In this document: positions 36,771 through 39,759 of the stretch, piece after piece
Layout of the letters: every line of letters starts with the position of its first letter
Position numbering within the stretch: the first letter of the stretch is position 1
From: Escherichia coli
Lineage (GTDB): Bacteria > Pseudomonadota > Gammaproteobacteria > Enterobacterales > Enterobacteriaceae
DNA length: 64,000 nt
NCBI RefSeq assembly: GCF_003790525.1
Contig: NZ_CP033635.1
Direction: 5' to 3' (one strand)
Notes under the pieces: generated by a model
What the model saw: the letters and a program-made list of their open reading frames with translations, nothing else
Databases searched by the model: none
What the model was told of the DNA's origin: nothing
Position numbers and translations under genes: made by a program

Positions 36771-37367
36771 TCAGGACGCAAGTCCCAGTGCGCGTTTGAC
36801 AGGCCCAAAGCTGCGCCGATGGTGTTCGGTCGCGCCGTGTTCAGCCAGTTTTTCCAGATGAAAAGCGGTTGGATACCCTTTGTGTTGGGCAAAACCATAT
36901 TGCGGGAAAACAATATCCAGCGCCGCCATTTCGGCGTCACGCGTCACTTTCGCCAGGATAGACGCGGCACTGATTTCCGGTACGCGGCTATCGCCTTTCA
37001 CCACAGCCATCGAAGGCATCGGTAATTTCGGGCAGCGGTTACCATCAATCAACACATATTCCGGCGCAATATGCAGTCCAGCGACGGCACGCTGCATCGC
37101 CAGCATGGTCGCATGTAAAATATTCAGTTCGTCGATTTCGTGAGGTTCCGCGCGGCCCAGACTCCAGCTCAACGCTTTCTCTTTGATCTCTTCACAGAGC
37201 GCCAGACGGCGTTTTTCGCTCAGCTTTTTGGAATCATTCAGCCCGGCAATTGGGCGCGCCGGGTCAAGGATTACAGCAGCGGTAACCACCGCGCCAACCA
37301 ACGGCCCGCGTCCAACTTCATCCACACCCGCAACCAGCTGCGTGTGTGGATAAACAAATTCGATCAT
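36771..37367 (-). CDS. rnhB: Ribonuclease HII, 198 aa
   Basis: ORF translation [28 protein letters not shown]... Confidence 0.94.
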
Positions 37368-38512
37368 TGTGCTAACTCCAGAACGGCTTGTGCCGCCTGC
37401 TCATCGGCATTGCAGCGGATCTGCTGATGCAGTTCACGGAAGGTATCGTGCATCGCGTGACTGGTTTTCCCGTTCGCCAACAGCGGTAACAGCGCCGCAG
37501 CCAGTTTTTGCGGCTCACACTCTTCCTGCAATAACTCTTTGACTAACTCTCTGCCCGCCAGCAAATTTGGCAGCGAGACATACTCGGTTTTCACCAGCCG
37601 CTTCGCCAGCCAGAAGGTAAAAGGCTTCATGCGATATCCCACCACCATCGGGCATTTCGCCAGCATGCACTCCAGGGCTGCCGTACCCGACGCCAGTAGC
37701 GCCGCATCACTGGCGACCATCGCCTCACGGCCCATTCCATCCAGCAGATGAACAGCAAGGTCCGGTGCGACTTCAGCTTTGATACGCTCAAACTGCTCGC
37801 GGCGTTTGGCATTCACCAGCGGCACCACGATCTCGAGATCGGGATATGTCTGACGCAAAAGCTGGGCCGTTTTCAGGAAATCGGCACTAAGCATTTCGAC
37901 TTCTGCACCACGGCTGCCCGGCAACAATGCCAGACAGTGGGCATCGTAAGGGATACCCAGCACATCACGGGCACCATTTTTATCTGGATCTAATGGCATG
38001 GCATCAGCCATGGTATGACCGATAAAGCGGCACGGTACGTTGTATTTGTCATAAAACGCCTTTTCGAAAGGCAGAAATGCGAGCACCAGATCGGTGGCTC
38101 TGCCTATTTTGAAAACGCGTTTCTGTCGCCACGCCCAGACGGACGGACTAACGTAATGAATGGTTTTGACACCCTGCTTTTTGAGGTTACCTTCAAGAGT
38201 AATATTGAAGTCTGGCGCATCAATACCGACAAAAACATCTGGCTTCAGTTCGCCAAAACGCTTTGTCAGATCGGCACGAATATGCAGTAAGCGACGCAGA
38301 CGCCCGAGCACTTCAACAATGCCCATCACCGCCAGCTCTTCCATTTCGTACCAGGCTTCGCAGCCTTCGGCTTGCATTCGTGGCCCGGCAACACCAACAA
38401 AGCGGGCATTGGGCACACGTTCTTTCAGAGCACGGATTAAACCGGCCCCCAGGATATCGCCGGAGGTTTCTCCGGCGACCAGGGCAATCGTTAATGGACG
38501 CTGTTCAGTCAT
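37364..38512 (-). CDS. lpxB: Lipid-A-disaccharide synthase, 382 aa
   Basis: ORF translation [30 protein letters not shown]...; 4-nt overlap with rnhB start. Confidence 0.95.
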
Positions 38513-39300
38513 TAACGAATCAGACCGCGCGTTGAGCGTGCAAAGAAATCGGTAAAGGCTTTCACTTCCGGATATGTTTCCGCCAGTTCAGCAATTTCCG
38601 GTTTCACTTCATCGAGCGTTTTACCGCTACGATAAATCAGCTTATACGCATTGCGGATAGCGGTAATCGCCTCACGGCTGAATCCGCGGCGCTTCAGCCC
38701 TTCGATATTGACACCGAACGGCGTTGCGTGGTTACCCTGCGCAATGACATAAGGAGGGACGTCCTGCGCCACACCGGAGCAGCCGCCAACCATCACATGC
38801 GCACCAATGATGCAGAACTGATGGACTGCGGTCATGCCGCCGATGATCGCGAAGTCGTCAACCGATACGTGACCCGCCAGCGTTGCGTTGTTGGCGAGGA
38901 TGCAGCGGTTACCTACCGTACAATCGTGCGCAATGTGCGCATTGATCATCAGTAAGTTGTCGCTGCCCACCTTCGTCAATCCACCGCCCTGGACTGTGCC
39001 ACGATGAATGGTGACGCTTTCGCGAATGCGGTTACGATCGCCGATTTCCACGCGGGTCGGTTCGCCAGCATATTTCAGATCCTGGTTAACTTCGCCGATG
39101 GAGGCGAACTGATAAATCTCATTATCGCGGCCAATTTTAGTATGACCATTCACGACAACGTGAGATTTCAGTACGGTACCCTCACCAATTTCGACATGGG
39201 GTCCAACGATACAAAAAGGACCAATGTGAGCGTTCGCGCCAATCGACGCGCCCTCTTCCACAATGGCGGTTGGATGCACAAAGGCGGATTTATCAATCAC
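38512..39300 (-). CDS. lpxA: UDP-N-acetylglucosamine acyltransferase, 262 aa
   Basis: ORF translation [29 protein letters not shown]...; hexapeptide repeats; 1-nt overlap with lpxB start. Confidence 0.95.
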
Positions 39301-39303
39301 GTA

Positions 39304-39759
39304 TCAGGCCTCCCGGCTACGAGCACACATCATCGTTGCTTCGCAAACTACTTTACCGTCGACCAGAGCAACCCCTTTAAAACGGGTCAGGCCGCGGCGC
39401 GTTTTTTCGAAAGTGACTTCCATGATCATTTGATCGCCAGGCACGACCGGGCGCTTAAAGCGCGCTTCGTCAATACCGGCGAAGTAGTACAGCTCACCCG
39501 GTTCCAGTTTTCCTACGCTTTTAAACGCCAGAATACCTGTTGCCTGTGCCATTGCTTCCAGAATCAGCACACCCGGGAAAATCGGTTTTCCAGGGAAATG
39601 GCCCTGGAAGAATGGCTCATTGACAGAGACATTTTTTACTGCGCGCAGAAAACGACCTTCTTCAAAATCCAGCACGCGATCCACCAGTAAGAACGGGAAA
39701 CGGTGCGGCAGAAGTTCTAAAATCTCTTCAATCTGCAGAGTATGAGTGTTAGTAGTCAA
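39304..39759 (-). CDS. fabZ: 3-hydroxyacyl-ACP dehydratase FabZ, 151 aa, non-ATG (TTG) start
   Basis: ORF 39304..39852 is N-terminally extended; recognised FabZ begins (M)[24 protein letters not shown], encoded from a TTG codon. Confidence 0.88.

Follow-up and report, generated by a model that had tools for sequence, protein, structure and literature searches.

The segment analysed here is part of a 64,000-nt stretch of Escherichia coli DNA, referred to as the window, and comprises the RefSeq-annotated minus-strand run lpxD-fabZ-lpxA-lpxB-rnhB-dnaE (Table 1). It matches E. coli SMS-3-5 (NC_010498.1) with 100% identity, and the RefSeq CDS coordinates agree with those that we read from the DNA. 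The cluster in K-12 has the order bamA-skp-lpxD-fabZ-lpxA-lpxB-rnhB-dnaE; gene order and CDS boundaries match those of the window, including an annotated TTG start for fabZ (b0180). Divergence between K-12 and the window amounts to ~2.5% over the 5.35-kb neighbourhood, lies mainly in bamA, lpxB and rnhB, and involves nothing of substance. The FabZ protein itself (WP_000210739.1) is annotated alike in SMS-3-5, DH5alpha and O157:H7. Among the 55 annotated CDSs of the window, 46 start with ATG and seven with GTG, while TTG is used by two genes, cdsA and fabZ.

Table 1. Genes, junctions and spacer features of the lpxD-rnhB segment (positions refer to the 64,000-nt window).
Feature	Position	Strand	Basis or reading
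rnhB (RNase HII), ATG start, 198 aa	36771..37367	-	ORF list; RefSeq CDS WP_000569423.1, same coordinates
lpxB stop / rnhB start, ATGA, 4-nt overlap	37364..37367	-	sequence
lpxB (lipid-A-disaccharide synthase), ATG start, 382 aa	37364..38512	-	ORF list; RefSeq
lpxA stop / lpxB start, TAATG, 1 nt shared (38512)	38510..38514	-	sequence
lpxA (UDP-GlcNAc acyltransferase), GTG start, 262 aa	38512..39300	-	ORF list; RefSeq; sequence
fabZ stop / lpxA start, TGA-tac-GTG, 3-nt gap, no overlap	39298..39306	-	sequence
fabZ (3-hydroxyacyl-ACP dehydratase), TTG start 39759-39757, 151 aa	39304..39759	-	RefSeq CDS WP_000210739.1
Near-invariant fabZ initiation region, -14 to +24 (ACAGGAAGAGTATC TTG ACTACTAACACTCATACTCTG)	39736..39773	-	comparison
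31-codon in-frame extension of the mechanical 182-aa ORF, from TTG 39852-39850	39760..39852	-	judged non-coding
fabZ ribosome-binding site AGGA, 8-nt spacer to TTG	39768..39771	-	pairing -4.3 kcal/mol
U-rich tail 3' of hairpin (GUUAUUAUUGUCGUUUCUUAUAUUUU)	39775..39800	-	only weakly terminator-like
Conserved GC-rich hairpin in lpxD-fabZ spacer (ACGGCCUGUC...GGCAGGCCGU)	39801..39836	-	folding, comparison
lpxD, ATG start, stop TAA 39866-39864	39864..40889	-	ORF list; RefSeq; sequence

The N-terminus of FabZ had originally been placed at a TTG codon, and the RefSeq start, the solved structure, the ribosome-binding-site score and conservation all agree with this placement. The longest ORF in the fabZ frame (39304-39852) has 182 codons, 31 more than fabZ. 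Chain A of the solved E. coli FabZ structure, PDB 6N3P, is the 151-aa form and aligns residue for residue, over all 151 residues, with residues 32-182 of this ORF (E=6e-99). Likewise, the NCBIfam FabZ profiles match residues 39/40-177, wholly downstream of TTG 39759, with 207.7 bits for NF000582 (cut-off 113) and 199.7 bits for TIGR01750 (cut-off 155). TTG is found at the homologous codon in 25/25 Enterobacterales, where it is embedded in an invariant ACAGGAAGAGTAT context, and the AGGA site is invariant in the 24 Enterobacterales that could be aligned. Scoring of ribosome-binding sites, which had been proposed as a check, favours TTG 39759 over the upstream start of the 182-aa ORF (-4.3 versus -0.7 kcal/mol). 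Because this score is only moderate and on its own discriminates poorly, with ~21% of arbitrary window positions reaching -4 kcal/mol or lower, the argument for the start codon rests on the comparative data. TTG is also stated to be the fabZ initiation codon in the literature (PMC11448367). A literature search that included the supplements of N-terminomics and Ribo-RET papers returned neither an N-terminal FabZ peptide nor Ribo-RET evidence for fabZ, and no mutational test of its start codon was found. As rough background from a heuristic survey, the start codons at 96 loci outside the Enterobacterales were ATG in 78 cases and GTG and TTG in nine each.

Other E. coli genes that initiate at UUG, such as cyaA and cdsA (PMC11448367), resemble fabZ in that the codon is found on an essential or dosage-sensitive gene; cdsA, which also begins with TTG, is located at 46183 of the window. 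According to PMC11448367, which cites Reddy et al. 1985, the weak UUG start limits expression of such genes. Unlike in this comparison, the UUG of fabZ is set in an unusually conserved 38-nt context. Across 19 species, the mean pairwise identity of the initiation region is 0.97, compared with a gene median of 0.81, the highest value of any 38-nt stretch of the gene. The identity at synonymous codons is 0.95 for codons 1-8 versus 0.56 gene-wide. This near-invariance around the TTG throughout the Enterobacterales, synonymous sites included, suggests that FabZ synthesis may be tuned at the RNA level. A possible pairing of AGAGUAU with AUACUCU on either side of the UUG was dropped as a structure, since the fold is no better than that of shuffled sequences (z=+0.25).

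Upstream of this region, the lpxD stop codon is followed by a 104-nt spacer, in which a GC-rich hairpin, a U-rich tail and the fabZ ribosome-binding site follow each other; hairpin and tail underlie the 31-codon extension of the longer ORF. Folding energies of the hairpin are -22 kcal/mol for E. coli and between -20 and -28 kcal/mol for 22/23 Enterobacterales tested, the exception being Ca. Gullanella (-10.6 kcal/mol), and the fold of the whole spacer has a z-score of -2.46. Its apical stems are lineage-specific yet self-complementary, and its end is located 33-48 nt, mostly 37-40 nt, upstream of the fabZ start. With a GC-rich hairpin and U-rich sequence between two genes of an operon, the spacer resembles intrinsic (Rho-independent) terminators or intra-operon attenuators, and a canonical terminator is present at the equivalent position in Actinobacillus. 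In contrast to such terminators, the U-tract here (GUGUUAUUAUUG) is interrupted, with U at 4-8 of 12 nt when counted from 3 nt past the stem (skipping a conserved GUG), so that the element is only weakly terminator-like. A terminator consensus scan of the spacer returned just a weak, minor variant with a 5-bp sub-hairpin, and literature searches for a terminator mapped to the lpxD-fabZ interval returned none. Rfam covariance models gave no match on either strand of positions 36000-42000 at E<=1. A scan for sigma-70 promoters yielded nothing convincing within the spacer in the direction of the genes, and promoter- and terminator-like counts did not exceed those of shuffled sequence.

Could the invariant UUG, its 38-nt context and the upstream hairpin form a dedicated post-transcriptional control element, rather than reflect generic selection for an open initiation site? 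Such an element might bind an sRNA or a protein, or serve as a leaky terminator or processing site, and would set the output of FabZ relative to LpxD and LpxA. Besides the identity values of the initiation region, the roughly fixed distance of the hairpin from the start and the covariation in its apical stem argue for this. Of the E. coli genomes matched by a 151-nt query (39730-39880, the spacer plus flanking sequence), all 5,423 carry it with an identity of 99% or more. Moreover, the spacer shows no difference between SMS-3-5 and either K-12 or O157, despite a divergence of 2.5% over the 5.35 kb around it; zero differences in 104 nt are, however, not significant for one strain pair at a local divergence of ~1%. 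Upon sigma-E overproduction, induction falls from 5.8-fold at lpxD to 2.2-fold at fabZ (PMC2731931), and FabZ dosage is physiologically critical for the balance of lipid A and phospholipids (PMC8745692). However, heightened synonymous constraint near gene starts is a general phenomenon, the initiation region itself lacks significant structure, and compensatory changes affect only 2/8 basal stem pairs of the hairpin, the invariant pairs being uninformative on covariation. No Rfam family matches, the interrupted U-tract fits a canonical terminator poorly, and the literature searches revealed no regulator that acts at the fabZ initiation site. Taken together, we regard a dedicated control element as possible but doubtful. 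An even more specific version, in which hairpin, U-rich tail and UUG region constitute an undescribed cis-regulatory module throughout the Enterobacterales, coupling leaky termination or RNA processing to a weak start that is tuned or regulated in trans, so as to fix or modulate FabZ against the co-transcribed lipid A enzymes, appears unlikely.

Regarding trans-acting factors, literature searches for sRNAs or CsrA with an effect at the 5' end of fabZ yielded only a report on RyhB and a general remark on a Salmonella hfq mutant, in which fabZ, lpxA and lpxD rise. fabZ is listed as a RyhB target with a site in its coding region (PMC13085923). Pairing of RyhB with the initiation region was rejected: the best RyhB complement is a perfect 12-nt match within the CDS (39561-39550), which fits the coding-region site reported in PMC13085923. 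The lone reported sRNA site appears to lie inside fabZ and not at its initiation region, which also speaks against a control element at the start.

Further downstream, the genes are closely packed. The original prediction had described lpxA and lpxB as sharing one nucleotide in an ATGA motif. The two genes do share a nucleotide, as the lpxA stop TAA (38514-38512) runs into the lpxB start ATG (38512-38510), but the junction reads TAATG; ATGA is instead the sequence of the lpxB/rnhB junction, where the predicted 4-nt overlap is indeed present on the minus strand (37367..37364). This ATGA is kept in all Enterobacteriaceae examined as well as in Yersinia and Rouxiella, and in Pectobacterium a gap of 10 nt separates the lpxB stop from the next ATG, where rnhB should start. 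The lpxA/lpxB junction takes the form of TAATG, TAAATG or a stop followed by 2-3 nt and ATG across the Enterobacterales, i.e., about 3 nt or less. Apart from Wigglesworthia, in which fabZ and lpxA overlap by 8 nt, all Enterobacterales with data have 3-4 nt between these genes. The GTG start of lpxA, not mentioned previously, recurs in each of the 22 Enterobacterales with data and is preceded by a strong ribosome-binding site (GGGAGG, -10.3 kcal/mol) within the 3' end of fabZ. Sites of lpxB (-2.4 kcal/mol) and rnhB (GGAG, -5.9 kcal/mol) are weaker; given its own GGAG, rnhB could initiate independently of lpxB. Short overlaps of 1-4 bases are ordinary, as in many operons.

Whether these junctions have functional consequences can be judged from known systems. 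Overlaps of -4 and -1 nt, to which lpxB/rnhB and lpxA/lpxB belong by their stop/start pairs (ATGA for the former; TAATG, of the TGATG/TAATG type, for the latter), couple tightly by termination-reinitiation in published reporter work in E. coli (Huber et al. 2019, PMC6728339; PMC10666635). As in coupled pairs, lpxA, lpxB and rnhB are co-directional and belong to one operon. They differ in that the pairs stressed in the 2023 paper are subunits of one complex, whereas here enzymes of one pathway are combined with an unrelated RNase. Literature searches returned neither a coupling experiment nor ribosome-profiling data for these genes. Tight translational coupling of lpxA, lpxB and rnhB, as claimed originally, is plausible, and we infer that ribosomes terminating at lpxA and lpxB would reinitiate at the overlapping starts of lpxB and rnhB. 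Reinitiation would matter most for lpxB, a gene that lacks a usable ribosome-binding site, and would tie LpxB output to lpxA. In addition, the weak UUG and GUG starts of fabZ and lpxA in their fixed contexts might set relative translation rates on one transcript.

Alternatively, the overlaps could be mere genome compaction, with free 30S subunits starting each downstream gene in the absence of functional coupling. Several observations would fit: the GGAG of rnhB is suitably spaced and the lpxA site is strong, short overlaps are common in the window (7/38 same-strand adjacent annotated pairs, with a 4-nt overlap in three, an 8-nt overlap in two, and overlaps of 1 and 14 nt in one each), and the exact junction differs among genera, as in Pectobacterium. 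Nevertheless, lpxB has no recognisable ribosome-binding site and still starts 0-3 nt from the lpxA stop in most species examined, and the published reporters (PMC6728339, PMC10666635) show tight coupling for the -4 and -1 classes in E. coli. We therefore consider compaction as the sole explanation improbable and retain reinitiation at lpxB and rnhB as the preferred reading.

The longer ORF had been predicted to begin at an upstream in-frame ATG and to add 31 residues foreign to known FabZ. No such ATG exists, as the ORF opens with a second TTG (39852-39850), and ATG, GTG and any additional TTG are absent from the 31 extra codons. The number of added residues was correct (182 versus 151 codons), and they have no homologous counterpart in FabZ profiles or in structures. 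In 25 Enterobacterales the frame upstream of the fabZ TTG is open for 7-49 codons only, and 11 of these species have no in-frame start codon there at all. Furthermore, the conserved nucleotides of the hairpin 3' arm translate as GRPCYYC, AGRVVD or QAVLL depending on the species, i.e., in three frames. Because neither its frame nor its length nor a start codon is kept among species, and the same nucleotides are read in three frames, the comparison shows that the extension is non-coding lpxD-fabZ spacer and not part of FabZ. A small ORF within the spacer (GTG...TGA, nine codons in E. coli) was rejected as well, as in other genera its nucleotides run into the fabZ frame. That a 182-residue FabZ is additionally made by ribosomes that end lpxD, reinitiate at TTG 39852 and read through the spacer is highly improbable: the frame is open into fabZ, this TTG lies just 11 nt beyond the lpxD stop, a distance allowing reinitiation, and E. 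albertii shares it, but it has no ribosome-binding site, a start codon at its position is confined to Escherichia, several Enterobacterales carry a stop 7-10 codons upstream of the fabZ start, the route crosses the hairpin of ~-22 kcal/mol, FabZ profiles and structures leave the extension unmatched, and the text of a Ribo-RET study, giving six upstream in-frame starts in BW25113 and 36 in BL21, does not mention fabZ.

Overall, the segment very likely represents the standard enterobacterial lpxD-fabZ-lpxA-lpxB-rnhB arrangement, with a 151-aa FabZ initiated at TTG 39759 and plausible reinitiation at lpxB and rnhB. The observation is real but ordinary, as this is a textbook E. coli locus whose accepted annotation already contains it; it adds little to that annotation, and the upstream ATG flagged as possibly contentious is nonexistent. 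The case is, however, a clean example of a start-codon question settled by comparison, since start and ribosome-binding site are invariant whereas the extension shifts in frame and length. If the hairpin and the UUG context were regulatory, they would add an extra post-transcriptional layer to the control of FabZ, whose dosage relative to LpxC determines how lipid A and phospholipid synthesis are balanced.

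The RefSeq genes, converted to window positions (see table), agree with a mechanical ORF list except in the fabZ frame, where the longest ORF reaches 39852. Junctions and starts were read directly on the minus strand. In line with the original prediction, FabZ is encoded from a TTG codon (39759–39757; 151 residues, (M) plus 11 residues onward), and the 182-codon ORF adds 31 residues to it. The upstream in-frame ATG proposed as the start of this extension (39760–39852, minus strand) is nonexistent: the ORF opens with another TTG (39852–39850), and ATG, GTG and TTG are otherwise all absent from the 31 extra codons. 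Ribosome-binding-site scoring, suggested as a check along with the prediction, favoured TTG 39759, where AGGA at 39771–39768 with an 8-nt spacer pairs with the 16S 3′ end at −4.3 kcal/mol, compared to −0.7 kcal/mol at TTG 39852; the score is only moderately discriminating, since pairing of −4 kcal/mol or better is attained at ∼21% of arbitrary positions. In the FabZ purification of Mohan et al. 1994, the protein N-terminal sequence was reportedly matched to this ORF. The E. coli FabZ structure 6N3P aligns to ORF residues 32–182 and the NCBIfam FabZ equivalog models start at ORF residue 39–40, leaving the extension unmatched in both. The initiation codon is also given as TTG in PMC11448367.

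Features of the lpxD–fabZ–lpxA–lpxB region in window coordinates
Feature	Position	Strand	Source or remarks
dnaE	33252-36734	-	RefSeq annotation
rnhB	36771-37367	-	RefSeq annotation
lpxB	37364-38512	-	RefSeq annotation
lpxA	38512-39300	-	RefSeq annotation
fabZ	39304-39759	-	RefSeq annotation
GC-rich two-tier hairpin	39836-39801, tail to 39775	-	∼-22 kcal/mol; in the 104-nt lpxD-fabZ spacer
lpxD	39864-40889	-	RefSeq annotation
skp	40893-41378	-	RefSeq annotation
skp GTG start	41376-41378		sequence/annotation
cdsA TTG start	46181-46183		sequence/annotation

Conservation of the start was analyzed in 120 fabZ loci retrieved by one degenerate-pattern scan of a species-representative genome collection; 24 are from Enterobacterales, ranging from Escherichia to Yersinia, Pectobacterium, Edwardsiella and several insect endosymbionts. 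All 24, like the window, have TTG at the homologous position, with ACAGGAAGAGTAT(T/C) before it and ACT ACT (G/A)AC ACT CAT ACT CTG after it. Beyond this conserved block on the upstream side, the open frame extends over no more than 7 to 49 codons, in-frame ATG, GTG or TTG codons are wholly absent in 11 of 25 species, and the conserved GCAGGCCGTGTT reads as GRPCYYC, AGRVVD or QAVLL depending on the genus, indicating that indels shift the frame freely. Together these features are a signature of non-coding sequence, and the extension is, as judged from this comparison, non-coding. Outside Enterobacterales, a rough heuristic gave ATG as the apparent fabZ start in 78 of 96 loci, with GTG in Actinobacillus and TTG in Moritella.

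Several loci show peculiarities of their own. Actinobacillus sp. GY-402, where fabZ starts with GTG, carries a canonical terminator (ACCGCACTTTTAAAGTGCGGT and then a T-run) between lpxD and fabZ and a TATAAT-containing stretch, both ∼100–170 nt upstream of fabZ. Yersinia FabZ has a low-complexity C-terminal extension (e.g., AVVGKAEVGKAEVGKSEVGKSEAAKSEVKES), bringing it to 183 residues in Yersinia thracica and 161 in Y. nurmii, versus 151. Short in-frame duplications just past the conserved start in a Sodalis-like endosymbiont and Acerihabitans (EEILVEEILELL; extra THA) show that insertions past codon 8 can be accommodated in the N-terminal tail. Within E. coli fabZ, CTGGAAGCAATG at 39550–39561 (minus strand) is perfectly complementary to the RyhB core over 12 nt, and fabZ is listed among the RyhB targets, with its site in the coding region (PMC13085923).

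The gene junctions are largely as predicted. The rnhB and lpxB genes overlap by 4 nt (...GCACA-ATGA-TCG; rnhB ATG 37367–37365, lpxB TGA 37366–37364). Likewise, lpxA and lpxB share one base (TAA 38514–38512, ATG 38512–38510), but the ATGA motif ascribed to this junction reads TAATG (...CGT-TAATG-ACT). There is no overlap between fabZ and lpxA (TGA-tac-GTG); lpxA starts with a GTG (39298–39300, minus strand) that had gone unmentioned, 3 nt past the fabZ stop and served by a strong GGGAGG ribosome-binding site within the fabZ end. This GTG lies 3–4 nt past the fabZ stop in all Enterobacterales with data except Wigglesworthia (8-nt overlap). Among the 38 same-strand adjacent pairs of the 55 annotated CDS in the window, seven overlap: three by 4 nt (lpxB/rnhB, yaeQ/arfB and tsaA/rcsF), lpxA/lpxB by 1 nt, two by 8 nt and one by 14 nt. 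PMC6728339 and PMC10666635 describe −4 and −1 nt overlaps as common classes in prokaryotic genomes, and the overlaps at this locus have no special significance compared to chance. The 55 CDS start with ATG (46), GTG (7) or TTG (cdsA and fabZ). From cdsA to rnhB, four genes out of nine have non-ATG starts (cdsA TTG, skp GTG, fabZ TTG and lpxA GTG), versus five of the remaining 46 CDS; the cdsA start is treated in PMC11448367.

With a pairing energy of −2.4 kcal/mol, the lpxB gene essentially lacks its own ribosome-binding site, and in most genera its start is separated from the lpxA stop by no more than ∼3 nt, which suggests that ribosomes terminating on lpxA would reinitiate at the lpxB ATG. 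For rnhB, which combines the ATGA overlap with its own GGAG site (−5.9 kcal/mol), reinitiation and independent initiation may both serve.

The 2.6 kb around lpxB-lpxA-fabZ are 100% identical to Escherichia coli SMS-3-5 (NC_010498.1), and the window is the reverse complement of NC_010498.1 187042–251041 save for five single-base differences outside this segment (31196, 17953, 14676, 14564 and 12182, falling in ldcC, 16S rRNA, 23S rRNA (two) and dkgB); the remaining 32 kb are identical. The segment is single-copy in 5,423 of 5,426 complete E. coli genomes. Its location on a plasmid-labelled record in three of the 5,423, as well as the three complete genomes without a match, probably reflects replicon labelling or assembly issues.

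The hairpin in the lpxD-fabZ spacer is followed by GUGUUAUUAUUGUCGUUUCUUAUAUUUU and then by the fabZ ribosome-binding site. Its basal stem, CGGCCUG(C/U)/(G/A)CAGGCCG, is nearly invariant in 23 Enterobacterales species, with compensatory changes in two of eight pairs; the apical part is lineage-specific in sequence and self-complementary in every case, so that this stem covaries. The distance from the hairpin end to the fabZ start codon is 33–48 nt, mostly 37–40. No Rfam match was found for the hairpin, and it is only weakly terminator-like because its U-tract is interrupted; it may act as a leaky terminator or as an element for RNA processing or stability. The spacer with its flanks (39730–39880), used as a 151-nt query, is ≥99% identical in all 5,423 E. 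coli genomes matched. The spacer itself has no differences between SMS-3-5 and K-12 DH5alpha or O157:H7, compared to 2.5% divergence in the 5.35-kb neighbourhood and 3.3% in the bamA–skp spacer, which is not significant for a single strain pair given a local divergence of roughly 1%. In a sigma-E overproduction array, induction drops from 5.8-fold for lpxD to 2.2-fold for fabZ (PMC2731931). This drop is compatible with some transcription ending at the hairpin or with additional transcripts that begin close by, and proves neither.

The initiation region from −14 to +24 around the fabZ TTG (39773–39736, minus strand) is the most conserved 38-nt window in fabZ, with a mean pairwise identity of 0.97 versus a gene median of 0.81 (19 species); the equivalent lpxA region reaches 0.77. 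Conservation includes the synonymous sites of codons 2–8: the same codon is used for the same amino acid in 95% of species pairs in codons 1–8 and in 56% gene-wide. The region is G-poor and has no significant structure (z = +0.25). A specific trans-acting regulator may lie behind this conservation, but a literature search found none for the region.

While the correct points of the original prediction are all part of standard E. coli annotation and thus already known, and its two potentially debatable details are transcription errors, the conservation across the order of both the spacer hairpin and the UUG context is the sole material that goes beyond the annotation; no description of either was found in the searchable literature. 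For the initiation region, the simplest explanation is that selection favours an open region of fixed sequence that compensates for or calibrates the weak UUG start.
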